Shown here: positions 6,564 through 48,400 of the stretch, piece after piece
Position numbering within the stretch: position 1 is the stretch's first letter
Layout: each line of letters begins with the position of its first letter
Origin: an uncultured Rivularia sp.
Lineage (GTDB): Bacteria; Cyanobacteriota; Cyanobacteriia; Cyanobacteriales; Nostocaceae
NCBI GenBank assembly: GCA_963665115.1
Contig: OY762007.1
Span: 2,144,001-2,208,000 of the forward strand
Length of the DNA: 64,000 nucleotides
Direction of reading: 5' to 3'
Position numbers and translations under genes: made by a program
The notes under the pieces: model-generated
Databases searched by the model: none
The model's input: only the letters and a program-made list of their open reading frames with translations
What the model was told of the DNA's origin: nothing

Positions 6564-6863
6564 AATCCGCCAGTCATTGTATTTTAGATTTTGGATTTTG
6601 GATTGGGAGTTAGGAGTTAGGAGTTAAGAGTGAGGAGTTAAGAGTTAAAAAACTTTTTTATGTAAACTTCCGATCGTACTTACTTTTTTTTACCCGTTCA
6701 CTTCCTATGCCCAATTCCCAATGCCCAATTACCAATTCCTAATGTCTATATCTTGCACAAACAACTAACACACTCAAGGCTACGACAATACAAACAGTTA
6801 TCAGTTACCAGTTACTAGTTATCAATCAACAGCTGATAATTGATAATTGTTCATTGTCTTTTC

Positions 6864-26826: not shown

Positions 26827-27594
26827 TCACAAATAATTTTCGGTGATTCTGCCATCTTCTAAGAATGCTACATTGTCGGCGAAACTTTGAATCCGGGAGT
26901 CGTGAGTCACCATGACGACGGTGCTTCCACCTTCTTTGGCTAAATTGCACAGTAATTCGATGACTGCTTGCCCGTTGTGAGAATCAAGTGCGGCGGTTGG
27001 CTCATCTGCCATAATCAACTTGGGATTACCAGCTAAAGCACGGGCAATCGCGATTCTTTGTTTTTGCCCACCAGATAAGTCTCGGGGAAGCAAGTGAGCT
27101 TTATTGGCTAATCCCACCATATCTAATAGCTCTAAAGCTTGATTGGTAGCAGATTTTCCTTTAATACCTTTGATCTCTAAGGCAAGTTGGACGTTTTCTA
27201 CTGCATTTAAAGCACCAAAAAGGTTAAAGCCTTGAAAAATAAAACCAATATTATCTCTTCTAAATTGTGATAATTTTTTACGAGACATTCGGGTAATTTC
27301 TTTCCCTAAAAGATTTACCTCACCAGAAGTAGGAGTCAAAATCCCTGCCAGAATTGATAGTAAAGTAGTTTTTCCGGAACCAGAATGTCCCATCAACAAC
27401 TGAATAGTACCCTTGGGAATATCTAAATCAATTCCTTTGAGTGCTACATAACGCTGTTTGCCGGATTGATATACCATTTCTACTCCTCTGGCAGAAATAG
27501 CGGAAGTTTTCAATTTACTTGCATTAATAGACTTTGAATCATTCCAACTGTCGATTCTGGAAGTCACTATACATCGATTTTGAGAAATAGTCAT
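26827..27594 (-). CDS. ABC transporter ATP-binding protein (LolD/DevA-like)
   Basis: GHSGSGKT, LSGGQKQR, ADEPT and VTHD. Confidence 0.93.
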   Translation of the reverse strand: MTISQNRCIVTSRIDSWNDSKSINASKLKTSAISARGVEMVYQSGKQRYVALKGIDLDIPKGTIQLLMGHSGSGKTTLLSILAGILTPTSGEVNLLGKEITRMSRKKLSQFRRDNIGFIFQGFNLFGALNAVENVQLALEIKGIKGKSATNQALELLDMVGLANKAHLLPRDLSGGQKQRIAIARALAGNPKLIMADEPTAALDSHNGQAVIELLCNLAKEGGSTVVMVTHDSRIQSFADNVAFLEDGRITENYL

Positions 27595-27720: not shown

Positions 27721-28971
27721 CTATGCTTTGAATACTATTGCCGGGTCTACTTTACTGACTTTTTGAATCGCAAATAAGGCAGAACCAACACACATCAAAA
27801 CGGTTATGCCAAATACTCCAACGGCTGTTAATGGAGTAATTAAAATGACAATTCCTTGAGTTGCTAAAGTCCAAGCACCCAAGCCCCAACAAAGCAACAT
27901 TCCTGGTATATACCCAAGAATCGCCATCCACAGAGCTTGCTCAATAATTACGCCGTATATCACCCTATTTGACGCTCCCATCGCTTTGAGTGTTCCAAAT
28001 TCTTTTAAATGGTCGGCAACGGCAGAGTATAGAATTTGACCAACAATTACGACTCCAACAACTACCCCAACTCCTGCCCCCAAGCCTAAAATGAAGCCGA
28101 TTCCCGTTGACTGCTGCCAATAAATTCGTATCTTTTTAGACAACTCTTTAGTGGTATACGCTTTAGTTTCTGGGAAGGTAGCTTCTAAACGTTTTTTCAA
28201 TTTTCGGATATTTTGACCTGGCTCTGCTTGAATTAGTACGTAAGAAATGGGTGTATTTAAGCTGAGTTTGGGTGGCGGTTCATTAGCTGATTGCTTTTTC
28301 TTGGCATCGGCATCTTTTTCATAAACATTCCGACACTGAAGTTGTTCTCCAACCCAGGTACAGTTGACGTTGGTGGTAACGCTGGCGTTTGCGTAAGCAT
28401 TTGCAGTTTCTAAAGAAGTAAATATAAAAGGACTCGAAACAACTGATTGAGTATTTTGCGTTAAACCAACTACCTGTACTGGCAATGAGCCAATTTGAAC
28501 GGTATCTCCAATTTTTTTAATTTTGAGAGACTTTAAATTGCTTTTATCAATGATTGCCGTATAAGGGTTTCTCAAAGATTTTTTGTTTCCCTTCAGCACA
28601 TCTCCAGGAACAAATAATCTTCCTGTGGCTGGAAATCCGTATACTTTTACTACATTTAACTTGCCATTCGGAACATTCCATCTAGCTGAACCTTGGAGCA
28701 AAGCTTCGGCTCGCTTTACACCTTCAACTTTCCTAGCCCTGACGGCATAATCAAAAATCAGCGGCTGCGTAAGTTCGAGCTGCACCATCTTATCTGAAGC
28801 TAACCAGATATCGGCTCGCGAATTTTCTACTAAAGCTGTGGTAGAACGAATTACACCGTTGAATACCCCAGTTTGAATAGTCACCAAGCTGACAGCAAAC
28901 ATAATTCCTGCTTGAGCCACTAGAAAGCGCGGAATATCTTCAAACAGGTTTTTACGAGCAATAGAAACCAT
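27721..28971 (-). CDS. ABC transporter permease (FtsX/MacB/DevC-like)
   Basis: MVSIARKNL start, one TM, a large periplasmic loop, EFGTLKAMGA and C-terminal DPAIVFKA. Confidence 0.9.
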   Translation of the reverse strand: MVSIARKNLFEDIPRFLVAQAGIMFAVSLVTIQTGVFNGVIRSTTALVENSRADIWLASDKMVQLELTQPLIFDYAVRARKVEGVKRAEALLQGSARWNVPNGKLNVVKVYGFPATGRLFVPGDVLKGNKKSLRNPYTAIIDKSNLKSLKIKKIGDTVQIGSLPVQVVGLTQNTQSVVSSPFIFTSLETANAYANASVTTNVNCTWVGEQLQCRNVYEKDADAKKKQSANEPPPKLSLNTPISYVLIQAEPGQNIRKLKKRLEATFPETKAYTTKELSKKIRIYWQQSTGIGFILGLGAGVGVVVGVVIVGQILYSAVADHLKEFGTLKAMGASNRVIYGVIIEQALWMAILGYIPGMLLCWGLGAWTLATQGIVILITPLTAVGVFGITVLMCVGSALFAIQKVSKVDPAIVFKA

Positions 28972-29928
28972 GAAACACAATCATTGAAAAAGTTTACTTA
29001 ACAAGGCAACTTACCTTCACCTGTTTACTGACGCAAAAGCAAGAAGAAATCGTTCCTTTTTATTCTTAGGGGCTGCGGTTAAGGTTTATGGAATAAGATG
29101 CGAATTGGGTTTAAAGAATATCTATCAACTGGTAATAAGCTACTGCTGCGATCGGTGACGATGTATAATACATATGTTCTTTATTTTATAAATTTTCTAA
29201 TGTTTGTAGTTAGCGAAAGTTTTCTAAAAAAAGTATGTTTTGGCTTAGATATAGACTTAAAAATGGCTTTTGATCGGTGCTATAGTAAGGTTTATCAGAT
29301 AGAGACGGCGAATAAGAATACAAAAAGAGTGAATTGATTTCCTCTTAAAACCAACTATCAAAATTATGCTCCTGCTAATTCTTAGCTGTGAGATAAGCTG
29401 AATTACAAAAACTGAATTTCAAATTATCCTGACATATTCTGTTAAGAAGAGAACAATTTAAAATCGTGAATATCAAACCTAAAATTGAATGTGCATTATA
29501 CTTCTTGATTTCTTATTCTAGTTTCAAGCCAAGTAGTTTAAGCTATGGAACCTTTTGATAGAGATAAAGTCTACCAGATAAAATATTCCATCCTACTAGC
29601 TCGATGTCAATCTCAAATCCCTACATTCATTTGATTGACAATTTCATTTTATAAACTCCATAAAATTTTCAACCAGATATGAAAGTATCCCATGACTGAA
29701 ACCGATTTATATCCATACAGATGTACATTCTTAATTAGTACTTACAACATCATAAATACTTAAGAGTGTAAGTGACTTCTCTCGACAGACTGGAGTGTGA
29801 GTAGTAATATTTTTCTCACTCCGAAGCCGATATAGTCGTGTTTCCCTAACTTTAGTTAGTTTTAAATAGTTTTGTAAAGTCGCTTCAACGATTGTTCATG
29901 TTTCCTTAATAATTCGTGTGAGGATTAA

Positions 29929-31626
29929 ATGGTAAATTTAGCTCTAACTCTATTAACTAGTGCAGCAAGATTATCTAAAGCAAATTTTGTACGTAAAACT
30001 CGTAAAACGGCAATTTGTCAAGAGCAATTTTTGTTTTCACTGCTGAAAACTCACCAAGAAACTCAATTTGGAAAAGATTGCGGTTTTGAAGATATCAAAA
30101 CTGTAGAGCAATTTAAAGAAAGAATTCCGATCCTTACTTATAGCGGTTACGAAAAATACGTCGAACGTATTGCACGAGGAGAACAAAATATTCTCACATC
30201 AGATCCAGTCGTTTACTTTAATCAAAGCAGCGGTTCCACGGGTAAACAAAAACTGATCCCGGTAACGAAAAGAGTGCGTAAAGTACGTTCTAGGGTAACT
30301 CAGCAATCTCTGGGATTCATGGTAGATGCTGCAATAAAACGAGGTTTGCCGATTGGTAAAATGTTGCTGACTACCTCCATCCAAATTCGCGATCGCACTA
30401 GTGGAGGTATTGCTTATGGCACTTCCAGCGTAGGGGATTTACGCAATATGGATTTTCTCTACAGACAAGTTTTTGTCCATCCTTACGATGCTTTGAAGCC
30501 AGCAGATAGTTTGGCTCGTAATTATGTTTGCTTATTGTTTGCATTGAGAAATCCTCAAATGCGAGTGATTGGGGCAAATTTCCCGATTTTGGCGCTACAG
30601 TTAGCTGATTATTTAGAGCGTTATGCTTTATATTTAATTCAAGATTTAGAGACTGGAAAAATTGCTTCTTGGTTGAAAATAGAACCTGAAGTGCGTGAAG
30701 CATTAGAAAAGCAGTGGAGTGCAGCACCGCAAAGAGCGGCTGAATTACGCTCTATTTTGCAAAGTGAAGAAACCTTAACTCCTAAGATGGCTTGGAAAAA
30801 TCTTTCATGGATAATTACCGCTCGCGGCGGTACTTCCGACTTCTATTTTGAAAGGTTTAATCAATATTTTGGCGATACTCCAATCTTTGGAGGAATTTAC
30901 GCAGCTTCTGAAGCAACTTTTGGTATTTACGAAGACTTTAACAGCGACGGTACTATTTTAGCTATTGACAGCGGTTTCTTTGAATTTATTCCTTCAGATG
31001 AATGGGAAAAAGAACAGCCGAAAACTGTTTTAGCTCATCAAGTTGAAGTCGGTAAAAACTATCGTATTGTTGTTACCAATTACAGCGGTTTATATCGTTA
31101 CGATATTGGTGATGTAGTTGAAATTGTCGGCTTTTACGAACAAGCTCCCATAATTGTATTTCGCCATCGTATGGGAGGATTGTTATCTGCTACCAGCGAA
31201 AAAACTAATGAATTTCATGCGACTCAAGTAATGCAGCAATTACAAAAAGAGTTTGATTTACCTTTAGCAAGCTACTGCATCACATTATCTAAAAATGAAA
31301 TTCCACCACACTATTTATTAAATATTGAATTACTTCCTAACCATCCTTTGAATAACCCAGAGAAACTTTTAGCTGAATTCGATTTAAAAATGCAGCAAGC
31401 AAACGTATCTTACGAGGAAAAAAGGTGTAATAACATACTTCCTCCACCTCGCCTACGTATTTTAGCCCCTGGAAGTTTTGCTACAGTTCGTCAGCGGCTT
31501 TTACAGAAAGGAATACCCGATTCCCACCTCAAAATTCCTCATATTAACGAAGATAGAAAATTTCTTGAAGGATTAGATATTGAGCAAGAAGTTAAATTAT
31601 CGCAATTAGAACAAATAAGTAAATAA
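29929..31626 (+). CDS. GH3-family acyl-adenylating (acyl-acid amido synthetase-like) protein
   Basis: SSGSTGKQKLIP, YAASE, FFEFIP and GLYRYDIGDVV (GH3 motifs I-III); GAGG RBS. Confidence 0.9.
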   Translation: MVNLALTLLTSAARLSKANFVRKTRKTAICQEQFLFSLLKTHQETQFGKDCGFEDIKTVEQFKERIPILTYSGYEKYVERIARGEQNILTSDPVVYFNQSSGSTGKQKLIPVTKRVRKVRSRVTQQSLGFMVDAAIKRGLPIGKMLLTTSIQIRDRTSGGIAYGTSSVGDLRNMDFLYRQVFVHPYDALKPADSLARNYVCLLFALRNPQMRVIGANFPILALQLADYLERYALYLIQDLETGKIASWLKIEPEVREALEKQWSAAPQRAAELRSILQSEETLTPKMAWKNLSWIITARGGTSDFYFERFNQYFGDTPIFGGIYAASEATFGIYEDFNSDGTILAIDSGFFEFIPSDEWEKEQPKTVLAHQVEVGKNYRIVVTNYSGLYRYDIGDVVEIVGFYEQAPIIVFRHRMGGLLSATSEKTNEFHATQVMQQLQKEFDLPLASYCITLSKNEIPPHYLLNIELLPNHPLNNPEKLLAEFDLKMQQANVSYEEKRCNNILPPPRLRILAPGSFATVRQRLLQKGIPDSHLKIPHINEDRKFLEGLDIEQEVKLSQLEQISK

Positions 31627-31882
31627 TAAGTAAATAATTAAGATCAATTTTTTACAAGACATAAAGATGGGAAATATGTAAATCTATAAGAGATTGGGAA
31701 ATAAGACTAATTGTGATTAGTTATACCAATAACCTATAGATAACAATCGATATTGTTGCTATTGCTATTAAATGCTTTGTATTTTAACGGTATTTTATAC
31801 CAATAGTTTAATTTTCGATTGTTAACTAAGGTAAATAAATCTTTCGATTGCTTTTATTTAACCTTACTCGATCGATCCAGTG

Positions 31883-33866: not shown

Positions 33867-33928
33867 TTCGTAGTAGCGCTTTAGCGCCTCTTATCGGATG
33901 CGCTGAAGCGCTACTACGAACCTTTTTT
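33866..33928. terminator. REP-like long hairpin between convergent genes, probable terminator
   Basis: GTTCGTAGTAGCGCTTTAGCGC (33866-33887) pairs with GCGCTGAAGCGCTACTACGAAC (33900-33921), followed by a T run. Confidence 0.7.
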
Positions 33929-35184
33929 CATCTACGAGCAAACCGTTTTCTTTTACGAAATAATCTTGATAAACTAAACCATAAAATTATTCCAACGGTT
34001 GATAATGCTAGTAAAAGTTGCCATAACGGTTTTGGTAGCATTAAATCGTATATTAAATCGTCAAATATATTTTTTTCAATAGCGGCTGTATTGGGATTAA
34101 TAACTCCAACATCTCCGACTATATCCATTTTCGTTTTTAACGCTAAACTTCTTTCTTGAACTTTTTTCAAAAGCTTTTGGCTTCTGTCTCCCTTTAAGAA
34201 AAAAGGCTGTGCTAAATCTTGATTTTCCCCAGCTACTGGCAGGATTTCAATACTATTAATTTGCTTAGAAGTTAAAATAAATTTGGCTAAAAAATTATCT
34301 GTCCAAAACGGATGATTGTGACCGAAAATAAAATTACCCAAGCAGTAAATTATAGGTTTATTTTTATAAATTTCTATCCCTTGCGGAAAATGGGGATGGT
34401 GCCCAAGAATAATGTCAGCACCAGAATCTATGGATTTATGCGCTAAACTGCGAACCCAAAATGGTGGCTTTTTACTGTCATTGAGTCCCCAGTGAAAAGA
34501 TAATATTACATAATCCACTTTCTGTCGTAATTTTTGAATATCTTCTCGAATTAACGATAAATCTGTAGGCATTACACCAGCACGATTCGGCTTTGCATAA
34601 CTCGAATCGCCGGAATTTTCTGACATTGTATAAGCAAGAAAACCCAAACGAATACCATTTTTTTCGCTAATAAATGGCAGTCGTGCTGAAGCCAAATCTT
34701 TACCGCTACCAACAGCAGGTAAATTAACTTGAGATAAACTGGTTAAAGTATCTTTTAATCCTGCAACTCCAGCATCAAGAGCGTGATTGTTAGCAGTAGA
34801 AACCACATCAACGCCAGCCCATTTTAATCCTGCGGCAAAAGCAGTTGGTGCTAAAAAAGCACCTTTTCTCTTAGCAGTATCCGATAAGGGAGCTTCTAAA
34901 TTAACAAAAGCAATATCGGCATCTTCTAGTACAGGCTTTATCTTTTGAAATGGATAACGCGCTTCTTCCTGTTTTGATGCAAAATCTAAATCGTATCGAA
35001 TAATTTGCCGGTGAAATAAACTTTCCTTTGACATCCTCGACCATTCTACATCCCCACCAGCGAGCAAAGTTACCTGAGATTGTGGTTGTGCGATCGCAGT
35101 TTGTGCGGGGAAGCCGAATGCAATTGCTAAATACCCGATAAATATTATTCTCGCGCACGAAGCTATTTTGAAAAGCTTATTCAT
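33928..35184 (-). CDS. CapA/PGA_cap-family metallophosphatase with signal peptide and C-terminal membrane anchor
   Basis: GGD, VNLE, ANNHALD, SFHWG, ILGHHPH and YCLGNFIF. Confidence 0.88.
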   Translation of the reverse strand: MNKLFKIASCARIIFIGYLAIAFGFPAQTAIAQPQSQVTLLAGGDVEWSRMSKESLFHRQIIRYDLDFASKQEEARYPFQKIKPVLEDADIAFVNLEAPLSDTAKRKGAFLAPTAFAAGLKWAGVDVVSTANNHALDAGVAGLKDTLTSLSQVNLPAVGSGKDLASARLPFISEKNGIRLGFLAYTMSENSGDSSYAKPNRAGVMPTDLSLIREDIQKLRQKVDYVILSFHWGLNDSKKPPFWVRSLAHKSIDSGADIILGHHPHFPQGIEIYKNKPIIYCLGNFIFGHNHPFWTDNFLAKFILTSKQINSIEILPVAGENQDLAQPFFLKGDRSQKLLKKVQERSLALKTKMDIVGDVGVINPNTAAIEKNIFDDLIYDLMLPKPLWQLLLALSTVGIILWFSLSRLFRKRKRFARR

Positions 35185-35307: not shown

Positions 35308-36510
35308 TTACTTATCATATTGTGCTGTTTCAAGTGCTTTACCTTGTTGAATGCTCAAAAACGTAGTTATTAAAGCTACGCCTGCTCCTACAAAAAATAC
35401 CCCAATTCCGGCATATTTCCAAACTGGCCCGAGCAAAATAGGCGAGAAAAATTGTCCTAAATTACTAGCCCCCGTTCCGATAGCTAAAACGCTAGAACGT
35501 ACTTCTCTCGGAGTTGATTTAGATAAAGCATCGTACAAATTAGGCATGACAATACCAAATCCCATGCCGAAAATAATTGCTGTGGGCAGAATCAAATAAA
35601 CTTGTTCTACAAAAGGTATAGTAATCAATGTTACTGCCATTAAGATAAAACCCAAGGCAATAGCTTTAGCGCTTCCCACACGCTTTGCTAATTTGCTGGC
35701 ACCTACGGCAGAAATAACGGCCGCACCAATGGCTCGCGATGCCAAAATTGCTCCATTAAGAACCGTATCGGCTCCGATTGCTTTTTTAAAATGTAGGGGA
35801 GCGTAGACAATAACTACATAAAAGATTGCAGATGACAAGGCTAAAGCTGTAAATAAGGTTAAAGTACTACTAGCTCTCAAGCTTTCAATTAATTTATCTT
35901 TTTGACCTAAATTGATTGATGAAGAACCTTGACGTTTGCGCTTTGGTAATAAAAAGTGGGCAAGTAACGCTGCTGGTAAAGCCAAACCATACATAAAAAA
36001 GGTAAATCGCCAATTGTATTTACCAAGTAAACCACCAAGAAGAGGAAAAATAATGCTGGCGATCGCCAATGCACTGGTTGTGTAACCCAAAACGCGGGTT
36101 CGCTTCTCTCCTTCATACATACTGCTGAGAATGCCGATACTCGCAGCTGCAATTCCCCCGCTGGCAGCCCCTAACAATGCTCGCGATATTAATAAAGGCG
36201 TAAAGCTGTTTGCAAAAGCCCCAGCAGTACCGAAAATTGCGTAGCAAATAAGTGATGGAATTAGCACTTTTACCTTTCCAATACGGTCGGCTAATATACC
36301 AAATATTGGACTAAACAAGAAGATTGTTAGGCAGTGCATACTAACCAGAATTCCCGACCACCGGGGATCGATTAAAAGTTGATCTTTAACCTCCGGCATC
36401 ACTGGTGCTACTAAGCTTCCCGTCATGGTGGTTAAGCTGCCACAAGCAAGTAGTACTAATAATATAGGAATTTGTTTGCGAGTTTCTTGAGTTAGAAACG
36501 AGGTAGACAT
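35308..36510 (-). CDS. MFS transporter
   Basis: About 12 TM helices; motif A GILADRIGKVKV. Confidence 0.92.
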   Translation of the reverse strand: MSTSFLTQETRKQIPILLVLLACGSLTTMTGSLVAPVMPEVKDQLLIDPRWSGILVSMHCLTIFLFSPIFGILADRIGKVKVLIPSLICYAIFGTAGAFANSFTPLLISRALLGAASGGIAAASIGILSSMYEGEKRTRVLGYTTSALAIASIIFPLLGGLLGKYNWRFTFFMYGLALPAALLAHFLLPKRKRQGSSSINLGQKDKLIESLRASSTLTLFTALALSSAIFYVVIVYAPLHFKKAIGADTVLNGAILASRAIGAAVISAVGASKLAKRVGSAKAIALGFILMAVTLITIPFVEQVYLILPTAIIFGMGFGIVMPNLYDALSKSTPREVRSSVLAIGTGASNLGQFFSPILLGPVWKYAGIGVFFVGAGVALITTFLSIQQGKALETAQYDK

Positions 36511-36779: not shown

Positions 36780-38105
<1,326 letters not shown>

Positions 38106-38227: not shown

Positions 38228-39061
38228 TTACTTCTGCGGAAGCTTGACGTTGGTTGCTAATCCGAGGAATTGCAATAATCTAATCGTCATCCAAGTCATG
38301 TCAATTTCCCACCATTTCAATCCATGACGTGCGGAATATTGAAAAGCATGATGATTATTATGCCAACCTTCACCAAAAGTCAGCAGAGCAACCCACCAAC
38401 AGTTGGTAGAGCGATCGCCTGAATCTTGATTGCGATAGCCGATGGTATGACAAGCACTGTTGACGAACATAGTAGAGTGAATGCCGACAAACAAGCGTAC
38501 AAATGTTCCCCAAACTACAAAAGGCCATCCACCAAGCAAATATAAAATAACTCCTAACGCGACTTGCAGTTCAATATAATAACGATGGCAGAAACGATAA
38601 AATGCATCGTCGGCAATATCTTTTGTCATGCGTGGAAGTTCGGGTTTAGCAGGCACCGTATGCATTAACCAGCCGATGTGACTCCACCAGAAACCTTCAT
38701 TGGGTGTATGAGGATCTCCTTTTTCGTCGGAATGTAAATGATGTACTCGGTGATATCCAACCCAGCCCATCACACCTCCTTGAAGTGCCAAAGTCCCGCA
38801 CAAAATCAAGAAATACTCCAGCCATTTGGGAACTTGTAAGCTGCGATGGGTTGCTAAACGATGAAATCCGAAAGCAATTCCCAAACCAATAGTCATCCAG
38901 TGCAATAACACTGCGACTCCTACAGCAGCCCAGCTAAAGTTTTGGGGTAAAAATGCTAATAAGACTGCTAGATGAAGAATGACAGTAAAAATAATCACCT
39001 TCAATCGGGGAGAAGGTGGATTTAATTGAGGTAAAGAAACTGGAGATAAATTGGTAGTCAT
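38228..39061 (-). CDS. Delta-9-type (DesC/Ole1-like) fatty acid desaturase; probable start 39061
   Basis: His boxes HRLATH, HRVHH and GEGWHNNHH. Confidence 0.92.
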   Translation of the reverse strand: MTTNLSPVSLPQLNPPSPRLKVIIFTVILHLAVLLAFLPQNFSWAAVGVAVLLHWMTIGLGIAFGFHRLATHRSLQVPKWLEYFLILCGTLALQGGVMGWVGYHRVHHLHSDEKGDPHTPNEGFWWSHIGWLMHTVPAKPELPRMTKDIADDAFYRFCHRYYIELQVALGVILYLLGGWPFVVWGTFVRLFVGIHSTMFVNSACHTIGYRNQDSGDRSTNCWWVALLTFGEGWHNNHHAFQYSARHGLKWWEIDMTWMTIRLLQFLGLATNVKLPQK

Positions 39062-39282
39062 GAATTTTTTTGCCCTACACCTACTTAAAGATAAAAGATA
39101 ATTTTTTGATACATTTAATACTGTGTTCCGTTCATACAGCGCTTTTCGTTTTAGTGCAATAACTTCGGGCAACCTCACCCCCTTCCCCTCTCCTTATTAA
39201 GCGGGAGGCGGGGTGAGGTTAAGTAAATTTCTGTACATACTCTAATGTCGGAACTCGGCATTAAGTAATTCTCAGATATGCT

Positions 39283-40878
39283 CTAAATAACCAAAGATTC
39301 GTTCATCTCAACTTGCTGAGACTTTTCTTTGATATTCGCTGCACGATAATCGGCTATTTGCCCTTCAATTTCATTCTGGACAACTTGACGGTAATCAATA
39401 TGATGCTCTAAAAGAGCGCACATAGTTACGTAAGAGATTAATACACTAGGATTATGCTTAAGTATCCCGAAAAGTTGACTCCAGAATTGGAATCGCGTAT
39501 TTCGTTTAATACCCTGTCGCCAAACAATAATTAATAGTGCTTTTAATTCTATTAACTCTGGCATTTTAAACTCTTTCTTGTAAGGGCGAGGCTGCATTTC
39601 CAGGTAATGGCGATAAACCCTTCCCAAGTATTTCTTTGGTTCGTATAATTCCCAGAAACACTTGACATATTCGGAGGCTAATTCTTCTATGGGACGAGTT
39701 GGAATAAAGTTAGTTAAAGAGGTTGTTTGATTGCCCGTATTGCCTTTTTGGTCAATTTCTAACAAACGCCCTTCTTTTTCTAATCGATGCCATAATGCTG
39801 TATTTGGTAGAGCTTGCAGCAAACCAAACATTGCATTCGGAATTGCAGTCGTCTCCACAAAATCAATAATGCGATCGCCTGCTCCTGCTTTTTCTCCGTC
39901 GAAACCGAGAATAAAGCCAGCCATGACTCGCAAGCCTTTACGATTAATTTTCTGAACGGCTTCTACTAAAGAATCGCGAGTGTTTTGATGCTTTTTCGTT
40001 AATGACAAACTATCCGTATCGGGTGTCTCAATTCCCAAAAATACAGAGCTAAAGTTAGCAGCAATCATTAAATCGAGCAATTCATCGTCTTGTGCTAAAT
40101 CTACTGAAGCTTCTGTTTGCAAGCTAAAGGGATAACCCCGCTCTACCATCCAAGGAATCAGTTCTTTGAGTAGAAGCTTGACATTACGTTTATTGCCGAT
40201 GAAATTATCATCTACCATAAACACCGAATGCCGCCAGCCTAAATCATACAGTGTTTGTAATTCCCCCAGCAGTTGTGCTGGAGACTTTGTACGCGGTTTG
40301 CGTCCGTAAAGTACGATAATGTCGCAAAATTCACACTGATAAGGACAACCACGGGAAAACTGCACCGACATATCGCTGTAAGCGCTTATTTCCAGTAAAT
40401 CGTATCTTGGTATCGGCGTAGTAGTAATATCGGGCTTTTCACCATTTGAGCGGAATATCCCCGAAGTTTCCCCTCTTTGAAGTGCTTCTACAAATAGAGG
40501 TAAAGTTATTTCTCCTTCATCTAGAACCAAAAAATCTACCCCTGCGGCTTGGGCTTCTTGGGGTACGGAAGTTACGTAAGGACCTCCCACCGCGACTAAT
40601 TTGTTACGCCGTTTTGCTTCGCGGATTAAGTGCAGCATATCTGGTTTCTGGACAATCATTCCGGAAACAACGATCAATTCTGCCCATTCCCAATCAGCTT
40701 CGGTTTCAGGAGCAATATTACGGTCAACTAGTCGAAAATCCCAATCTTGAGGTAGAATAGCCGCTACCGTAATCATCCCCAGAGGAGGAACAGTTACTTT
40801 ACATCCAATTAGTTCTATACTTTTGTCGAAAGACCAAAAAGATTTTGGAAACTGAGGATATAGCAGTAAAACTCGCAT
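39283..40878 (-). CDS. B12-binding radical SAM protein (DUF4070, HpnP-like class B methylase family)
   Basis: PPLG and GGPYVT (B12-binding domain), SRGCPYQCEFC, DDNFIGN and FLGIETP. Confidence 0.9.
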   Translation of the reverse strand: MRVLLLYPQFPKSFWSFDKSIELIGCKVTVPPLGMITVAAILPQDWDFRLVDRNIAPETEADWEWAELIVVSGMIVQKPDMLHLIREAKRRNKLVAVGGPYVTSVPQEAQAAGVDFLVLDEGEITLPLFVEALQRGETSGIFRSNGEKPDITTTPIPRYDLLEISAYSDMSVQFSRGCPYQCEFCDIIVLYGRKPRTKSPAQLLGELQTLYDLGWRHSVFMVDDNFIGNKRNVKLLLKELIPWMVERGYPFSLQTEASVDLAQDDELLDLMIAANFSSVFLGIETPDTDSLSLTKKHQNTRDSLVEAVQKINRKGLRVMAGFILGFDGEKAGAGDRIIDFVETTAIPNAMFGLLQALPNTALWHRLEKEGRLLEIDQKGNTGNQTTSLTNFIPTRPIEELASEYVKCFWELYEPKKYLGRVYRHYLEMQPRPYKKEFKMPELIELKALLIIVWRQGIKRNTRFQFWSQLFGILKHNPSVLISYVTMCALLEHHIDYRQVVQNEIEGQIADYRAANIKEKSQQVEMNESLVI

Positions 40879-41931: not shown

Positions 41932-43056
41932 ATGGAAATAGCTCCAATGCTAAGGAGCCAAACCGTTCAAAATCAAGTGCGCGAAGTCGGTATTAATCCA
42001 AATTATTGGTATCCCGCAACTTGGGCTTCGGAACTAAAACCAGGTGATGTAATACCCGTAATGATTTGGAATTCGGCGATCGCACTTTACCGTTCCCAGG
42101 ATGGTCAAGTTCACGCTATGGAAGATGCCTGCCCGCATAAAGGTATAGCTTTACACAAAGGTAAAGTAGCTGGAGAAAACCTTACCTGTCCTTATCACGG
42201 TTGGGAGTTTAACGGTGATGGGGTGTGTACCAACATTCCTTATTTTCCTAAAGACCAAAAATTGCCCTGTGCTTCTTCACGTAGCTATGCGGTGCGAGAA
42301 AAATTTAATTTGATCTGGATTTTTCCGGGAGCGATTGAAGATTCAGAAACAGTCGAATTTCCTTCGATTCCAGAATATGATGACCCAAACTGGCTAGCTA
42401 TTCCCATACCGGGAGAGTTTAAAGCTCATTTCTCCATCTGTAACGAAAACACGATGGACGTGTTCCACGGCTATTTACATGAAAACTTGCAGGGCTGGTT
42501 CGATCCAGAACTAATAAGTTTGAAAGCCTCCGATGCATCGGTATTTGCTATGGGTCGAGTATCTTATCAAGGTTGGATGACCAAGTTTTTCGGATTCAGC
42601 GAACAAGGGAACGAAGTTACTACTCGTACTGTCACAATTAAATATAACTATCCCCATTACCATAGTTCTTTGGAAGGAATGTCTTCCCTTTATTTGATGC
42701 GTCAACCAGTGGGGGCACAATTAACAAAATCTTTTTCCCTATTGTTTATCAAAATTCGCCTTCCTCAATGGTTTGTAAAACCGTTACAAAAACCGATAAC
42801 AAAAATCATTTGGCGGTTTATCTTGAAAAGTTTTCTCGATCAAGACACCGAGATGATTGAAAGCGAACAACAAACCTACCTAGCTAATCCCCAAAGACGT
42901 TATGTAGAAATTAATCCAGCAATCATTGCCCTACAACGGGTAATTGTCGGTCAATATGAAAAATTTGTGCAACAATCTAAAAAACTATCCAATGGCAATA
43001 ATGGTAATCACGCATCTTCGGTTGGTGAAATTAAATCAAATTTAACTTCTACTTAG
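41932..43056 (+). CDS. Rieske non-heme iron oxygenase alpha subunit
   Basis: CPH...CPYHGW Rieske motif; ENTMDVFHGYLH and DQD iron ligands; GGAG RBS. Confidence 0.92.
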   Translation: MEIAPMLRSQTVQNQVREVGINPNYWYPATWASELKPGDVIPVMIWNSAIALYRSQDGQVHAMEDACPHKGIALHKGKVAGENLTCPYHGWEFNGDGVCTNIPYFPKDQKLPCASSRSYAVREKFNLIWIFPGAIEDSETVEFPSIPEYDDPNWLAIPIPGEFKAHFSICNENTMDVFHGYLHENLQGWFDPELISLKASDASVFAMGRVSYQGWMTKFFGFSEQGNEVTTRTVTIKYNYPHYHSSLEGMSSLYLMRQPVGAQLTKSFSLLFIKIRLPQWFVKPLQKPITKIIWRFILKSFLDQDTEMIESEQQTYLANPQRRYVEINPAIIALQRVIVGQYEKFVQQSKKLSNGNNGNHASSVGEIKSNLTST

Positions 43057-43176: not shown

Positions 43177-44463
43177 GTGGAAGTTGTTGAAGAGTATATG
43201 CAGGGACTCTATCAAAGTGGTCTCTATCCAGATAAGTTAATTTGCCATGAAAAACATGGAAATGTAGTCGAAGTTGAAGATCCTGCCGATGGCAAGCGAT
43301 ATAAACTATTGACATTCTGCACTAACGATGTATTAGGGTTAGTTCAGTCAGAAGAAGTAAGACAAGCGGCGATTGATGCAATTGTGAAATACGGTACTTC
43401 TAATAGTTCCTGTTCCGTGTTAAGCGGCAGAATTGAGTTGCATCGTCAGTTGGAGCAAGAAATTTCGGCTTTCAAACATTTGCCCCATACTCATCTATTC
43501 CTCAATGCTTGGATGGCAATGCAAGCATTAATAGATGGTTTTTGCCACTTAGCGATTAATCTTCCTGGCTTTCGGAACACCAGAGAAACCTTAATTTTGA
43601 CTGATGTTCTCAACCACGGCTGTATAGTTTCTGCCGTTACCAATGCCAGCAATCGTTCTGGAAAGATGTTTAGTCATAGTCCTGATGTTCGCGTGAAAGC
43701 TTACCGTCATTGCGACGTAAATGACTTAGCGCGAAAATTACGACGCTATGCGAAGCCAAATGACCGAATTTTGGTAGTTTCCGATGCTGTCTTCTCAATG
43801 GATGGGGATATCGCTCCATTGCCAGAGATGCTGGACGTTTTAGAAAACTATCCAGGTAGCGTCATTGTGATGGATGAAGCTCACGCCAGCGGTGCGCTCG
43901 GTCCTAAAGGCGGCGGTATCTACGACCATTTTGGAATTACGCCCCAGCAAGTACTCGATCGGGGAATGGTGCCATTAATTATGACCACCTTCTCTAAATT
44001 TGCAGCTTCCGCAGGTGCAGCAATCAGTTCTCATATGCCAGAAATGATTGACTTGTTGGACGTTTCCCCAACCTCCATCGGTACAATTTCTCTTCCACCT
44101 CCAACAACAGCAGCAGCGTTAGAAAGTATTCGTCAGGTAAGACAAAATCCTGAATTAGTCGAAACCTTGCAAGCCAACGCGAATTACTTGCGATCGCGTT
44201 TAATCGAACATGATTTTGCAGCGATTGGCGAAACTAACGTCATACCAGTACTAATGCCACCCGAACTCAATCCCAAGCAGTTCACCCGTCATTTGATGGA
44301 ACACCACGGTATTTGGGTATCTGCGATTTGGTTTATTGCTAAACCTCGCTTAAGAATTACCGCAAACGCGCTTCATACTAAAGAAGAAATGGATAATTTG
44401 GTTGAAGCAATGGTACAAACGCGAGAGCTTTTATATAAACCTGCGACTGTAGCTACTGCTTAG
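43177..44463 (+). CDS. PLP-dependent alpha-oxoamine synthase, putative serine palmitoyltransferase
   Basis: NDVLGL, D..NH, SDAVFSMDGD, DEAHASG, TFSK (PLP lysine) and RLRIT (BioF/KBL/SPT fold). GTG start with a GAGGAG RBS. The SPT call rests on gene context. Confidence 0.8.
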   Translation: MEVVEEYMQGLYQSGLYPDKLICHEKHGNVVEVEDPADGKRYKLLTFCTNDVLGLVQSEEVRQAAIDAIVKYGTSNSSCSVLSGRIELHRQLEQEISAFKHLPHTHLFLNAWMAMQALIDGFCHLAINLPGFRNTRETLILTDVLNHGCIVSAVTNASNRSGKMFSHSPDVRVKAYRHCDVNDLARKLRRYAKPNDRILVVSDAVFSMDGDIAPLPEMLDVLENYPGSVIVMDEAHASGALGPKGGGIYDHFGITPQQVLDRGMVPLIMTTFSKFAASAGAAISSHMPEMIDLLDVSPTSIGTISLPPPTTAAALESIRQVRQNPELVETLQANANYLRSRLIEHDFAAIGETNVIPVLMPPELNPKQFTRHLMEHHGIWVSAIWFIAKPRLRITANALHTKEEMDNLVEAMVQTRELLYKPATVATA

Positions 44464-44538
44464 AAATTGAAAAGGGTGGGCATCCCTGCCCCACAATAGT
44501 TGTAAATCTTCTTGATTTGTAAGAATTGTCGAGATTTT

Positions 44539-44571
44539 AGAAACCCGGTTTTTTCAAAAAACCGGGTTTCT
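44539..44571. repeat. Palindrome AGAAACCCGGTTTTTTCAAAAAACCGGGTTTCT (near-identical copy at ~48799-48830)
   Basis: Self-complementary, and repeated in this window. Confidence 0.8.
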
Positions 44572-44740
44572 GAATTTTTTGATGGTGCGTTATGCTGCGC
44601 GATGACACACCCTACGTTCTCAAAAGCGCACTTTTTGCTATTTCCTGTTCCCTGTGCCAAACAATTAAAATAAACCAATAAAAATATCATAATTAAAAAT
44701 TTAACTGTAACTTTTTTACATTAAACGCAAAACTTTATTA

Positions 44741-45892
44741 GTGAATATGGTTACTCAAACTCAAAATTTTCAGGTATCACCTGTAACTACAGACGCACAG
44801 AGGGAAATGTTCCTCGATGTGCCTGTTAAAGTATATAAAAATAATCCTAATTGGGTTCCACCAATTCGCAGCAGCATTGCCAAACAATTAGCATCAAACG
44901 AAAATCCTTTTTTGGAATATGGAGAATTTCAGCAGTTTATTGCTATTTCTCAAAAGAATAACGAACCTTTAGGAAGAATTGTCGCTATAGTAAATCGCCG
45001 ATTAATTGAAAGCGAAGGTAAAAATGTCGGTCTTTTTGGTTATTTTGAATGCCTAGAAGACTTTGAGGTTGCTAATAGTCTATTAGAAACAGCTTCCAAG
45101 TGGTTGCGCGATAAAGGGATGAATTTTGTCAGGGGACCAATAAATTTATCTACTCACAATAGCTGTTTATTTTTAGTAGATAAATTTGATCAACCACCAA
45201 TCATGATGACACCTTATAATCCGCCTTATTATCCTGAATTTATGGAAAAGGCTGGTTATTACAAAGGAAATGATGCATATGTTTTCAATTTTCCCTTAGA
45301 TACTGCTTTAGACCCTAAATTTGAAAAAGCTTATCGAATTGCTTGTAAATCTGGAGTAACATTTCGCCCACTCCGCACTAAAGGTGAAGGTTTTGAACAA
45401 GATTGTCGAGATATATATAACCTTGTAGGTAAAGTTTTTACTAAAAATTATAGTTATAGCTACCGTACTGTAGAAGAATTTCTCAGTCAGGCTAAAGATT
45501 TGCAAGATATGGCTGACCCAGATGTATTTCCCATAGCCGAACATGACGGTAAAATGATTGGTGTTTGGATGGGAATACCAGACTATAATATTGTTTTAAA
45601 ACATATTAACGGTAAACTAAATTGGTTAGGAATTATCAAATTCCTTTGGTATCGCCGTCAAATTGACCAAGGGATAGTACCCCTTATTGCTTGTTTGCCT
45701 GAGTATCGCCGCAAAATGGTGCCTTTAGCTCTTGTTTACTTAGGTATGCAAGGAGGAATCCGAAAAGGAAAGCCCTACAAAAGAGCAGAACTCGGTTGGG
45801 TATGGGAAGATAACTCAGCTTCCCGCAAAATGATTGAAGCAGCAGGCGGCAAAATCTACAAGACTTACCGAATTTACGAGAAAGCGTTATGA
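44741..45892 (+). CDS. GNAT-fold protein resembling bacterial ceramide synthase (bCerS/YghO-like)
   Basis: PNWVPP, GRI, GLFGYFEC, RGPINLS, MTPYNPPYY and ELGWVWEDN..SRKMIE...YRIYEK. Lies downstream of the SPT-like gene. Confidence 0.75.
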   Translation: MNMVTQTQNFQVSPVTTDAQREMFLDVPVKVYKNNPNWVPPIRSSIAKQLASNENPFLEYGEFQQFIAISQKNNEPLGRIVAIVNRRLIESEGKNVGLFGYFECLEDFEVANSLLETASKWLRDKGMNFVRGPINLSTHNSCLFLVDKFDQPPIMMTPYNPPYYPEFMEKAGYYKGNDAYVFNFPLDTALDPKFEKAYRIACKSGVTFRPLRTKGEGFEQDCRDIYNLVGKVFTKNYSYSYRTVEEFLSQAKDLQDMADPDVFPIAEHDGKMIGVWMGIPDYNIVLKHINGKLNWLGIIKFLWYRRQIDQGIVPLIACLPEYRRKMVPLALVYLGMQGGIRKGKPYKRAELGWVWEDNSASRKMIEAAGGKIYKTYRIYEKAL

Positions 45893-46860
45893 AAGCTTTA
45901 GTTACAGGTGCCAATGGTTTCACGGGTTCGCACTTAGTAAAAGCGCTACAGCAGCGCGGCGATTCGGTTATTGGACTAGTGCGAAAATCCAGCGATTTAA
46001 CAAGATTAGAAAATACAGGAATACATTTAGTTACGGGAGACATTACCGATCGCAACGCCTTACGTCAAGCGATGCAGGATGTTGACATGGTATTCCATAC
46101 AGCAGCTTTTGTGGAGTTAGGTTTAGTCGATGCCGCAAAAATGGAACGGGTAAACGTCGAAGGAACTCAAGCCGTTTTAGAAGTTGCCAAGGAAATGGGA
46201 ATTTTAAAAATGGTTTATTGCAGCACCATCGGCATTTATGGCGATACCAAAGGTGAAATCATCGATGAAACCTTTGAAAGAACTCAAGAAAACTTCTCCT
46301 CTGCTTACGACAGCACCAAATATGAAGCACAGCAGCTAGTTGACAACTACGCCGTCATCGGTTTTCCCGTAGTTAGCGTTATGCCTTCAGGTATTTTTGG
46401 CCCAGACGATCCGCATTTTGGCCCCGTATTTAAACTATTTTTGCAAGGTAAATTAAAACTCTGGGTAGCTGGCGATCGCATGACAGGGATAGTTCATGTG
46501 GACGATCTTGTAAATGCCATGATATTGGCAGCAGAAAAAGGCGAAAGAGGAGAACATTACATAATTTCTGCTGGTGAAGTTCCCTCCCGCGAAATGTTTG
46601 AAATTATCAGCGAACAGACAGGCATTTCCACACCTACGGAAGTTCCACAACCGATAGTTAGAATTGCAGGTAATATTCTTGACCCGATAGGAAGCTTATT
46701 CTCATGGAATCCACCAATAGGTAAAGAGCGCTTACATTACTTGTACGACCGCTGCGTGCGAGTCGATGCAAAGAAAGCGCGTGAAAAATTAGGTTGGCAA
46801 CCCCGTTCTGTGTCCCAAACATTACAAGAAATTGCTACACACTTACAATCTCAAATTTAA
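45889..46860 (+). CDS. Extended SDR / NAD-dependent epimerase-dehydratase, putative 3-keto (oxidised ceramide) reductase
   Basis: TGANGFTG, ST and YDSTK (YxxxK). ATGA overlap with the upstream stop codon. Confidence 0.85.
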   Translation: MKALVTGANGFTGSHLVKALQQRGDSVIGLVRKSSDLTRLENTGIHLVTGDITDRNALRQAMQDVDMVFHTAAFVELGLVDAAKMERVNVEGTQAVLEVAKEMGILKMVYCSTIGIYGDTKGEIIDETFERTQENFSSAYDSTKYEAQQLVDNYAVIGFPVVSVMPSGIFGPDDPHFGPVFKLFLQGKLKLWVAGDRMTGIVHVDDLVNAMILAAEKGERGEHYIISAGEVPSREMFEIISEQTGISTPTEVPQPIVRIAGNILDPIGSLFSWNPPIGKERLHYLYDRCVRVDAKKAREKLGWQPRSVSQTLQEIATHLQSQI

Positions 46861-47067
46861 AGATAAAACAAAAATAAGGTTGTTGGTAGTTGCGCTTCAG
46901 CGCCTCCGAGAAGAAGCGCTAAAGCGCAACTACGAACCTGCTAAGTCCTCATTATTGCAACCTATTAAAGATTTTTAACGTCCTCAACAAAGTAGTGTTG
47001 TACGCAATTATCATGTCGATAAATTGTTACGATAAATTACAAGACAGATATTTCTTCAAAAGCTTAT

Positions 47068-47577
47068 ATGAATTCAGTGTTATTTAGTGCTTCGACAGCA
47101 ATAATTTGTTTCCTAATTGCCTTCACACTGGCGAGTTTGGTGGAATACTGGCTGCATCGTTTGATGCACGTTAATCGTAAAATTGGTGAACGTCATCGCG
47201 ATCATCATCGTCGCAACGAAGGACAAGGTGTAGTCTGGGAGTTTCGCGATTATGTTGTTGGTAGCTTAGTCGTCTTGCCATTAATGTTTTTCTTTTCTTG
47301 GAGTGCTGGTTTGGGTTGGTTGCTCGGAAGTTTGAGCTATGCGGCTTTTTCAGCATATGCTCATCAATTACAGCATGAAAATCCAACCAAATGCTTCTGG
47401 ATGAAAATGCCAGTTCATTACGTCCATCATAAATACGGGATGTGGGAGCATAACTTTGGTTTAGCTGTAGACTGGTGGGACCATGTTTTCGGTACTTACA
47501 AACCTGTTGAAGAATGGATCGGTGAAAAAGAAATTGCGCTATCCGAACGCGGTTATTTACAGTTGAAGTGGTGGTAG
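47068..47577 (+). CDS. Fatty acid hydroxylase / sterol desaturase family protein
   Basis: His boxes HRLMH, HRDHH, HQLQH and HYVHH; NFG...WWDHVFGTY. Confidence 0.9.
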   Translation: MNSVLFSASTAIICFLIAFTLASLVEYWLHRLMHVNRKIGERHRDHHRRNEGQGVVWEFRDYVVGSLVVLPLMFFFSWSAGLGWLLGSLSYAAFSAYAHQLQHENPTKCFWMKMPVHYVHHKYGMWEHNFGLAVDWWDHVFGTYKPVEEWIGEKEIALSERGYLQLKWW

Positions 47578-47810: not shown

Positions 47811-48203
47811 GTTGAAATTACCTCTAATCCCTATTAGGGATTGAAACGGGAAATACGCTAATCCATCATTTTTTGACAAAAGTTGAAATTACCTCTAATC
47901 CCTATTAGGGATTGAAACACGTCGTATTGCAAAAACAGATGCGGAAAAAGAATGTTGAAATTACCTCTAATCCCTATTAGGGATTGAAACACAGAAGACA
48001 AGAAAGAAGGTTTGAGAGCTACAGGTTGAAATTACCTCTAATCCCTATTAGGGATTGAAACGCAGAAACGATACTCAAACTATTGGTATTACCAAGTTGA
48101 AATTACCTCTAATCCCTATTAGGGATTGAAACGGAAGAATTGGTAGTTAAGAAGTGATTATTTACGTTGAAATCGCCTCTAATCTCTATTAAGGATTAGA
48201 AAG
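47811..48203 (+). CRISPR. CRISPR array: 5 identical 37-bp repeats plus 1 degenerate repeat, 5 spacers (33-35 bp), type I-D-like; no cas genes in the window
   Basis: GTTGAAATTACCTCTAATCCCTATTAGGGATTGAAAC starts at 47811, 47882, 47954, 48025 and 48096; degenerate copy at 48166. Internal AATCCCT/AGGGATT hairpin and ATTGAAAC 3' end. Confidence 0.97.
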
Positions 48204-48400
48204 TAAACATTTATCATCAAAAATAAAATCTATCTTAAGTACAGTAACCAAACTATAACTTCTGTTAGAGGGATGATTAGATCATTTATAGGTAATCTTG
48301 ATTTGTATTCAGTACAACTAATCTTGCTTTGAAATAGATTGGATTTTTAGATGTGCTGAATCAGTTAAAACTATTGGAAATGAGCTAACAAAGTTTCGTG

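Follow-up and report, generated by a model that had tools for sequence, protein, structure and literature searches.

The window analysed here, a 64,000-nucleotide stretch of DNA from an uncultured Rivularia sp., carries four genes on the plus strand that encode an alpha-oxoamine synthase (AOS), a GNAT-fold protein, an extended SDR and a His-box hydroxylase. All four open reading frames were found where a previous sequence-only reading had placed them, and the seven motifs which that reading had quoted were present in the translations (7/7). The features considered in this work are given below by position in the window; counts over 14 and 137 refer to the core-positive and the remaining genomes of the profile sample described further on.

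26827-27594, - strand: DevA-like ABC ATPase that probably works with the permease listed next; score under the DevA cut-off
27721-28980, - strand: DevC/MacB-like ABC exporter permease; tracks the core (14/14 vs 0/137)
29929-31626, + strand: GH3 acyl-acid amido synthetase; frequent accessory (13/14 at >=49%, 0/137 at that level)
31880-32857, + strand: JmjC/cupin hydroxylase, possible tailoring gene; 6/80 loci
33105-33866, + strand: OlsC/LpxO-like acyl 2-hydroxylase, possible tailoring gene; top NCBIfam match OlsC (E 1.8e-78), under cut-off; 10/80 loci
33928-35184, - strand: CapA/PGA_cap family protein, link uncertain; 7/80 loci
35308-36510, - strand: MFS transporter; tracks the core (14/14 vs 0/137); 33/80 loci
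36780-38084, - strand: cyclopropane fatty acid synthase-like methyltransferase; 13/80 loci, link mostly intra-genus
38228-39178, - strand: fatty acid desaturase; 14/80 loci, link mostly intra-genus
39283-40878, - strand: B12-binding radical SAM protein, possible tailoring gene, divergent from the Rieske gene; 20/80 loci
41932-43056, + strand: Rieske oxygenase; frequent accessory (60/80 loci; 10/14 vs 0/137)
43177-44463, + strand: AOS, 428 aa; core gene; Aminotran_1_2 and AOS-type NCBIfam matches
44741-45892, + strand: GNAT of the bCerS/YghO family, predicted tandem-GNAT N-acyltransferase, 383 aa; core gene
45889-46860, + strand: extended SDR, predicted ketone reductase, 323 aa; core gene; GxxGxxG, S and YxxxK; Epimerase/3Beta_HSD
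47068-47577, + strand: His-box membrane hydroxylase/desaturase, 169 aa; near-core gene; FA_hydroxylase PF04116

The overlap by ATGA between the SDR start (45889) and the GNAT stop (45892) was verified. The four genes had also been described as an operon, which the sequence does not establish: gaps of 277 nucleotides between AOS and GNAT and of 207 nucleotides between SDR and hydroxylase each contain a hairpin, the first of them (44536-44574) terminator-like and the second located at 46882-46937. Promoter predictions were at chance level (23 observed vs 22.4 expected). A Rieske oxygenase gene, co-oriented with AOS and located 120 nucleotides 5' of it, and, further to the left, linked genes for an MFS transporter, a GH3 enzyme and an ABC exporter had been absent from the sequence-only reading.

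We analysed the distribution of these genes in 151 genomes spread over the phylum Cyanobacteriota. Orthologues of AOS, GNAT and SDR were detected in the same 14/151 genomes and in none of the others (0/137), counts that are to be read in the light of the partial kinship among the 14 genomes, and the hydroxylase was present in 13 of these 14 as well as in 5/5 named genomes. The SDR lay away from the AOS locus in 7/14 core-positive genomes, yet was still present, and it was kept in four core-positive genomes in which no Rieske gene was detected; likewise, the GNAT was located elsewhere in all five genomes whose AOS locus is without it (5/5). A neighbouring ChaN-like control gene departed from this pattern (11/14 and 16/137), and an amidohydrolase tracked the core (10/14, 0/137). 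Altogether, carriers of the cassette belonged to at least nine cyanobacterial families, in a patchy distribution with no AOS in the same-family genomes other than the core-positive ones (0/22). It was kept in Richelia HH01, which has broken copies of bioF and bioD and in which no bioB was detected, and a Moorena genome (L118) carried AOS-GNAT-SDR and the hydroxylase along with a third AOS. These counts uphold the proposal of a co-occurring core: the four genes form one pathway. The transporters and GH3 were not invariant among the named genomes (MFS 4/5, permease 3/5, GH3 3/5), so that export may not hold for all carriers.

A phylogeny of the AOS against Spt, BioF, Kbl and HemA, part of the check that the sequence-only reading had called for, was obtained as three trees (FastTree, 115 rows; LG+G4, 40; mixture model, 28, the latter two on hand-picked subsets), in all of which the AOS fell outside the BioF clade and separate from Spt. 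It formed a clade of its own (support 100/100) beside the Spt clade (100/99), and both shared a branch excluding E. coli and cyanobacterial BioF, Kbl and HemA (support 93-96); AOS-Spt sisterhood was not rejected (AU p 0.11). The AOS stayed below all three Spt cut-offs (NF047600, NF047599 and NF047603; scores 172/640, 160/500 and 112/670 bits). Its identity to eight Spt references was 26-31%, lower than that of the BioF from the same genome (32-40%), and it never attained against these eight the Spt filter of E<=1e-70 used in PMC11334938. The best solved-structure match was the S. multivorum SPT (SmSPT, E 1.2e-39), and the top NCBIfam match was bioF (TIGR00858), with 231 bits vs a cut-off of 426.45. 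Identity to cyanobacterial BioF (Npun_R3567 clade) was 32%, and CqsA-type synthases matched poorly (E 1e-8). Judged from its sequence, the AOS is neither BioF nor a member of the Spt family, and belongs to a separate clade.

Kbl and ALAS were also considered as identities for the AOS and rejected, with scores of 189/460, 156/493 and 174/339 bits and a position outside both clades. A search of the ESM Atlas gave general AOS clusters only. In a metagenome scan for the gene context of the deep, non-cyanobacterial part of the clade, no more than four loci were close, and 76 were generic AOS.

The PLP catalytic residues N50, H147, D233, H236, K274 and R393 were intact in 80-81 of the 81 orthologues, and the equivalents of SmSPT Asn52 and His138 were retained. 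The AOS differed from the SmSPT pocket at Tyr54, Gly80, Ser81, Phe83, Asn117 and Phe272, with many of the changed positions fixed across the AOS clade, and the hydrophobic acyl-site residues of SmSPT were replaced. With the pocket rebuilt in this way, the enzyme may well use an amino acid other than serine, an acyl chain other than palmitoyl, or both; the changes mark divergence without pointing to any particular substrate.

The GNAT could be assigned to the bCerS/YghO family as previously claimed; in the accessible part of PMC9386255, yghO is named for E. coli BL21 as the cluster's N-acyltransferase gene. It aligned over its full length with six GNATs adjoining Spt-like genes (27-34% identity, E 2e-36 to 6e-65) and passed the E<=1e-30 rule of PMC11334938, the references for both GNAT and SDR being cluster homologues and not the characterised bCerS and CerR of Caulobacter or Bacteroides. 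The nearest non-cyanobacterial reference was from Rubrobacter (33.6%). The window GNAT kept 20 of the 34 positions invariant in the six Spt-linked GNATs, vs 10/34 in six homologues without an AOS close by, and the bCerS-type C-terminal signature was retained. bCerS-like GNATs also exist without an AOS in the stretch examined (L042, L130, L213-L219), and an unconstrained GNAT tree did not place the cyanobacterial clade within the Spt-linked set (AU p 0.07). No Pfam or NCBIfam match was obtained for this protein. A model built from the alignment (pLDDT 77; 37 for the single-sequence fold) showed a tandem GNAT fold, with Z 21.5 and an rmsd of 4.2 over 308 residues to 7q3a, in agreement with Foldseek; no solved bCerS structure was found by sequence or fold, an absence that carries no weight.

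Matches of the SDR to the six cluster (CerR-type) SDRs ranged from E 2e-4 to 5e-22, short of the E<=1e-30 rule. In the tree it did not group with them, with weak deep support, and a single clade was not rejected (AU p 0.09); it was no nearer to CerR than to another SDR of the same genome.

Carriers of the cassette, a minority of the cyanobacteria, likely make a ceramide-like lipid that is as yet undescribed, because a bCerS relative adjoins an unusual condensing enzyme within a shared gene set. We regard a ceramide-type product of one kind or another as probable, and the (hydroxy)ceramide-like or related amino-alcohol lipid inferred from the sequence alone is still the likeliest product. The claim of a complete ceramide core was upheld as regards the bCerS family of the GNAT and the co-occurrence, and was not supported in the strict sense, given an AOS outside the Spt clade and cut-offs and an SDR no closer to CerR than to another SDR of the genome. 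Our preferred reading, a ceramide-type lipid whose base is not the standard one, likely hydroxylated and exported, and made by the co-occurring genes, is offered at slightly under even chances. From the co-occurrence, the family assignments and the intact catalytic residues we infer the following steps. From an acyl thioester, probably acyl-ACP, and an amino acid, the AOS would form an alpha-amino ketone by condensation with loss of CO2. The GNAT would N-acylate the amine, and the SDR, although of a different subfamily, would act like CerR and reduce the ketone, which yields the amino alcohol; N-acylation and reduction may come in either order. The His-box hydroxylase, plus the Rieske, OlsC-like and JmjC enzymes where present, would oxidise the chains; GH3 may attach a further amide, and the MFS and DevC-type ABC transporters would carry the product through the inner membrane and on towards the envelope. 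Loci L038-L040 have their own genes for an ACP, an acyl-ACP synthetase and LptF/G, none of which was seen in the cluster of the window. With more reserve, we consider that the product might constitute an own cyanobacterial class of sphingolipid-like molecules, with an undescribed AOS clade, a non-serine or unusual base and DevC-type export; if this class is real, the fact that Richelia keeps the cassette while losing biotin synthesis would point to a function on the cell surface or where symbiont and host meet.

The same genes could make an ordinary serine-derived (hydroxy)ceramide membrane lipid, with the divergent AOS acting as serine palmitoyltransferase and the SDR replacing CerR. SmSPT as the top solved structure, the sisterhood with Spt that was not rejected, the joint branch without BioF, Kbl and HemA, and the conserved Asn52 and His138 equivalents are all in line with this; nevertheless, we find it doubtful, since the AOS lies under all Spt cut-offs, is less Spt-like than the BioF of its own genome and has many pocket positions changed and fixed in the clade. 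The Moorena genome with AOS-GNAT-SDR and hydroxylase recalls the cerebroside from Moorea producens (PMC6272925), the only sphingolipid-type record for the genus Moorea/Moorena; however, the producer is uncertain because that sample was hand-collected in the field, the genome has a third AOS, and no glycosyltransferase was seen in the cluster of the window.

Unlikely, in our view, is that the product is not a two-chain lipid but a small amide or amino ketone, secreted as a signal or surfactant, to which the GNAT would add a short acyl group and GH3 an amino acid, with turnover by the amidohydrolase. MFS, ABC permease, GH3 and amidohydrolase indeed track the core, the acyl-site residues of SmSPT are replaced and the distribution is patchy, but the GNAT keeps its bCerS-type signature, the adjoining tailoring genes are mostly lipid-chain enzymes, the CqsA-type match is poor and the characterised bacterial GH3, OlsH, produces a membrane aminolipid from fatty acids according to the available part of PMC12493201. 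The oxidase and reductase genes might instead modify a sterol, a hopanoid or another existing lipid, with AOS and GNAT serving something else: in NCBIfam the Rieske protein matched SdmA best (E 1.5e-67), and the SDR matched HpnA (E 1.7e-59) and SdmB (E 1.3e-43). All three scores were far under the cut-off (228/600, 201/368 and 150/600, respectively), and the SDR accompanies AOS and GNAT in 14/14 genomes, including the four without a detected Rieske gene, which makes this very improbable. Hardly credible is a spare BioF or housekeeping AOS beside unrelated genes, despite bioF being the top family match, given that a second gene of the genome passes the BioF cut-off (468.7 bits), the cassette outlasts the decay of biotin synthesis and the co-occurrence of the core is exact.

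AOS, GNAT and extended SDR are common to the window and to the Spt-bCerS-CerR systems of Caulobacter, E. coli BL21 (spt-acpR-epi-aasR-yghO) and Sphingomonas, as depicted in the accessible parts of PMC11087976 and PMC9386255, and homology of the GNAT extends along the whole protein. Unlike those systems, the window has an AOS outside the Spt clade, an SDR that is a predicted ketone reductase with a weak CerR match, and accompanying MFS, DevC-type ABC, GH3 and Rieske genes. In favour of the preferred reading, the AOS-GNAT-SDR order is the same in Rubrobacter (L041) and Streptomyces (L129), but the AOS of these compact loci and of that of Aureispira (L124) lies inside the Spt clade. Cyanobacterial BioF (Npun_R3567 clade; PMC8895605, in its available part) is of the same enzyme family, and the second AOS of the genome is of this type. 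That a clade of SPT-like AOS enzymes can take a different amino acid when its pocket at the dimer interface is rebuilt has a precedent in the sulfonolipid enzyme CFAT/SulA, which, in the portion available of PMC13692747, is like the window AOS without the Asn117 contact. The cysteate fatty acyltransferase identity itself was rejected: Lys280, important for CFAT activity, corresponds to Ile304, and the Phe-Gly-Tyr loop (Gly114-Tyr115) to Asn-Ala-Trp (Ala111-Trp112), the trees being without a CFAT sequence. The wider cluster also shares a GH3 and an OlsC-like gene with the OlsH/OlsC ornithine lipid pathway (PMC12493201, PMC12971839), but both counterparts are far under cut-off (NF052613, 100 bits vs 620, with the three GH3 motifs present; OlsC-like hydroxylase, 263 vs 450), and OlsH, as far as the available text of these papers goes, needs neither AOS nor bCerS.

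The negative Nostoc lipid study mentioned in the sequence-only reading is real (PMC8895605); however, by the accessible part of that paper the gene tested was the usual one of the BioF clade, and the strain has a single AOS. Since that strain has a BioF-type gene only, the result says nothing against the cassette, and no ground is left for calling the product conditional. For cyanobacterial sphingolipids, the same part of the paper points to a pair of chemical reports and a single study with a negative outcome, with no genetic basis or enzyme reported; the available main text of the ISME J paper names cyanobacteria in a reference only, and no description of this cassette or pathway was found in the literature searched. 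The cassette is a concrete genetic candidate for cyanobacterial sphingolipid-like lipids, and cultured strains are among its carriers. Spt homology screens could miss it because its AOS falls short of the E<=1e-70 filter of PMC11334938 against the eight references. If the proposal is true, it would bring another lipid class to a phylum considered to depend on glycerolipids, give the AOS enzymes a new substrate specificity and reveal a clade of them overlooked by published Spt screens; it would also offer a candidate surface molecule for the nitrogen-fixing marine symbiosis of the diatom symbiont Richelia.

Contigs of relatives covering cassette genes were detected in four metatranscriptome runs from two studies, one contig spanning Rieske-AOS and another GNAT-SDR-hydroxylase, in libraries that may contain DNA. 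The nearest related loci were 92-97% identical and came mostly from organisms named Rivularia, Calothrix or cyanobacterium.

The cassette genes of this Rivularia sp. form one pathway that is real, conserved and larger than the four genes that the sequence-only reading had singled out. The genes concerned are:
41932..43056, forward strand: Rieske oxygenase gene
43177..44463, forward strand: alpha-oxoamine synthase (AOS)
44741..45892, forward strand: tandem N-acyltransferase (GNAT)
45889..46860, forward strand: predicted reductase (SDR)
47068..47577, forward strand: His-box hydroxylase
35308..36510, reverse strand: MFS gene
27721..28980, reverse strand: DevC-like ABC permease
26827..27594, reverse strand: DevA-like ATPase
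29929..31626, forward strand: GH3 gene

An AOS orthologue was found in all 24 genomes of the genus and in 9 of 16 from other families, and GNAT was present in the same 9, with one weak match in addition. In an even phylum-wide draw of 151 genomes, own genome included, AOS reached the threshold of E<=1e-60 in 14 genomes from nine families, which include kin and are not independent. The same 14 genomes carried GNAT at E<1e-140, and 21 others gave matches of no more than 23-35%. SDR at E<=1e-60 was likewise found in these 14, of which 7 have it away from AOS; the hydroxylase was present at 67% or more in 13, with three weaker matches (50-55%) elsewhere. Searched genome-wide, the MFS gene and the permease each occurred in these 14 genomes and in none of the 137 others. 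GH3 reached 49% or more in 13 AOS-positive genomes, four distant matches lying elsewhere, and the Rieske gene was present in 10/14 AOS-positive and 0/137 AOS-negative genomes. As a control, the neighbouring ChaN-like gene was found in 11/14 AOS-positive versus 16/137 AOS-negative genomes, so that kinship alone yields enrichment, but not the exact match seen for the core. Cassette-positive strains include Baaleninema PCC 7105, Calothrix NIES-267 and Anabaena UHCC 0204. Of five named genomes with AOS (Moorena, Richelia, Baaleninema, Anabaena and Mastigocoleus), all 5 carried SDR and hydroxylase, 4 carried MFS, and permease and GH3 were present in 3 each. Together with the phylum profile, these counts identify the four genes as the core, as had been proposed, transport and GH3 being frequent, not invariant.

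An amidohydrolase was present in 10 of the 14 AOS-positive genomes and was not found in the own genome. The copy at locus L220 (159-1547, reverse strand) and its orthologues are 74-88% conserved and lie beside the hydroxylase in several lineages; it is a candidate ceramidase-like turnover enzyme.

The four open reading frames and all seven motifs quoted in the sequence-only reading were located in the window, where the GNAT stop and the SDR start do overlap by ATGA. The Rieske oxygenase identified by family search of the window ORFs is co-directional and lies 120 nt upstream of AOS. As for the claimed operon, co-orientation stood, but a single transcript was not concluded because both intergenic gaps (277 and 207 nt) contain a hairpin. 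The GC content of the cassette resembles that of the flanking DNA, and the records of the closest relatives are titled mostly Rivularia, Calothrix or simply cyanobacterium. Among the best 80 of 295 AOS loci, nearby genes were Rieske (60), GNAT (51), SDR (38), hydroxylase (35), MFS (33) and GH3 (10), and the four genes were co-oriented as in the window at only 14 of the 49 loci flanked by 5 kb on each side.

Several further features were observed. Long inverted repeats (44536-44574 and 46882-46937), intergenic in the window, occur in other contexts on relatives' contigs and are therefore probably dispersed repeat elements. Just past the hydroxylase there is a CRISPR array (47811-48208) of six repeats with 70-72 nt spacing, the last one degenerate, and no cas gene was recognised among the adjacent window ORFs. 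Positions 5532-7382 hold two tandem ORFs, the second short, which by their translation look like copies of undecaprenyl-diphosphatase (BacA). At loci L075, L078-L080, L084, L086 and L089, two of them titled Spirulina, GH3 directly follows AOS in place of GNAT; in the L078 genome, the only one of these checked, GNAT is found elsewhere. Elsewhere in the own genome (G000:C1:4282256-4285477), a further copy of the DevC-like permease (87%) and a further GH3 (55%) point away from each other amid efflux and two-component genes. About 60 kb past the window (G000:C1:2267952-2279334) lies another cluster, with a distant GH3 (23%) and three Rieske oxygenases, which may encode a second pathway for an amide lipid or natural product.

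Judged by its sequence, AOS is neither BioF nor a member of the Spt family. It scored below every NCBIfam AOS cut-off, and the second AOS of the own genome passes that of bioF. Clustering with BioF, which the sequence-only reading had named as speaking against itself, was not seen, since cut-offs and three trees separate the two. In those trees the AOS group formed its own fully supported clade beside the Spt clade (alphaproteobacterial, E. coli, Bacteroidota and actinobacterial references), on a common branch that excludes E. coli and cyanobacterial BioF, Kbl and HemA and also contains one protein passing the bioF cut-off; a sister relationship was not rejected (AU p 0.11). Against eight Spt-type references AOS gave E values of 1e-19 to 1e-41, which fall short of the 1e-70 Spt filter of PMC11334938. 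Among 1.84 billion representatives, its near relatives comprised about 7 near-full-length clusters (37-62%) and some fragments, followed by generic AOS.

Catalytic residues are retained in 80-81 of 81 AOS orthologues. AOS was aligned to SmSPT, the serine palmitoyltransferase of S. multivorum, residue roles being taken from PMC10196870 and PMC13692747. Tyr54 is Val in AOS, Gly80 is Ser, Ser81 is Cys, Phe83 is Val, Asn117 is Met and Phe272 is Gly. All 81 orthologues have Ala-Trp in place of the Gly-Phe/Tyr loop, and a different, shorter segment stands where SmSPT has its Pro-rich C-terminal loop. Through Bacteroides references, Tyr27 appears to be replaced by Asp. By this alignment the pocket is rebuilt relative to SmSPT; the changes do not indicate a substrate. 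Identity with the sulfonolipid synthase CFAT (cysteate fatty acyltransferase) was discarded because its lysine is absent.

The proposed relation of GNAT to the bCerS family was borne out, and the protein can be described as bCerS-like on its sequence. It shares 27-34% identity with six Spt-linked GNATs, and its predicted model is a tandem GNAT fold. These six references have 34 invariant positions; all 8 cyanobacterial sequences keep 20 of them, and six homologues that belong to other classes in the phylum and have no AOS in the fetched stretch keep 10. In an unconstrained tree the cyanobacterial clade fell outside the Spt-linked set (AU p 0.07), and bCerS-family members also occur without AOS nearby in the fetched stretches. 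GNAT matched 46 plasmid records, in 44 cases over 80% or more of its length. Several of the records are annotated yghO or dATP pyrophosphohydrolase, the latter presumably the database label of Caulobacter bCerS. Three of these plasmid loci represent a full spt-acp-reductase-lptFG cluster, with an AOS that scores above an Spt cut-off. E. coli BL21(DE3) has an spt cluster of its own (PMC9386255). Rubrobacter and Streptomyces loci show AOS-GNAT-SDR in the same gene order as the window. Loci L213-L219 (genomes G081, G061, G113, G096, G078, G048 and G043), from other classes of the phylum, hold bCerS-like GNATs with no AOS found in the fetched stretch; they form their own clade, lack the C-terminal signature, and some are fused into larger ORFs or adjoin AMP-binding ligases.

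Co-occurrence and chemistry are the basis on which SDR is predicted to be the ketone reductase. Its motifs (GxxGxxG, Ser, YxxxK) are intact; its matches to six cluster SDRs ranged from E 2e-4 to 5e-22, compared to 1e-23 for an unrelated paralogue in the own genome, and it did not group with them in a tree (AU p 0.09, one clade not rejected). The best profiles were HpnA and SdmB, both below cut-off, and the best solved-structure match was 3wj7, a putative oxidoreductase.

AOS chemistry yields an alpha-amino ketone. In bacterial ceramide synthesis, as outlined in part of PMC11087976, an AOS makes the base, a bCerS-type GNAT N-acylates it and an SDR reduces the ketone. Here AOS would likewise form an alpha-amino ketone, GNAT would N-acylate the base and SDR would reduce the ketone, and the hydroxylases and GH3 may tailor the product. 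A passage of PMC12493201 describes OlsH, a characterised bacterial GH3, as using free fatty acid and ATP to form N-acyl ornithine. The window permease is similar to DevC and the ATPase to DevA, both below cut-off, and no DevB gene was identified beside them. DevBCA systems export heterocyst glycolipids.

The claim of a complete ceramide core stood in part: the pathway probably operates in the manner of bacterial ceramide synthesis without being a member of it in the strict sense, as AOS lies below the Spt cut-offs in a separate clade and SDR is weak against the cluster SDRs. A ceramide-type product is likely. That it is built on a non-standard base is a tentative reading, and serine ceramide is rather improbable.

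Full-text search found no description of the cassette, and the pathway is apparently undescribed so far; Stankeviciute 2022 and an ISME J supplement, outside its scope, could list cyanobacteria. The Nostoc study to which the sequence-only reading pointed exists (PMC8895605); according to it, the one AOS of Nostoc punctiforme belongs to the cyanobacterial BioF clade and lacks SPT activity. The paper cites two chemical reports, one of them on mooreaside A, whose source was a hand-collected field sample (PMC6272925, in part). The Moorena genome with the cassette (locus L118) additionally carries a third AOS (G185:C193:2327-3493), in a frame of 580 residues, which passes neither the Spt nor the bioF cut-offs and is a further candidate for making amino-lipids in Moorena.

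In the draft genome of Richelia intracellularis HH01 (G186; L074), bioF is broken into three pieces and four stops interrupt bioD, while AOS is whole:
C76:3336-4436, C23:223-726: decayed biotin genes (bioF pieces, bioD stops)

No bioB was found in this draft, which retains the lipid cassette, GH3, MFS and permease. In a second Richelia genome, bioF, bioD and bioB were all intact. The bioB of the own genome (G000:C1:7794657-7795590) matches in two frames, reflecting a frameshift or an assembly error.
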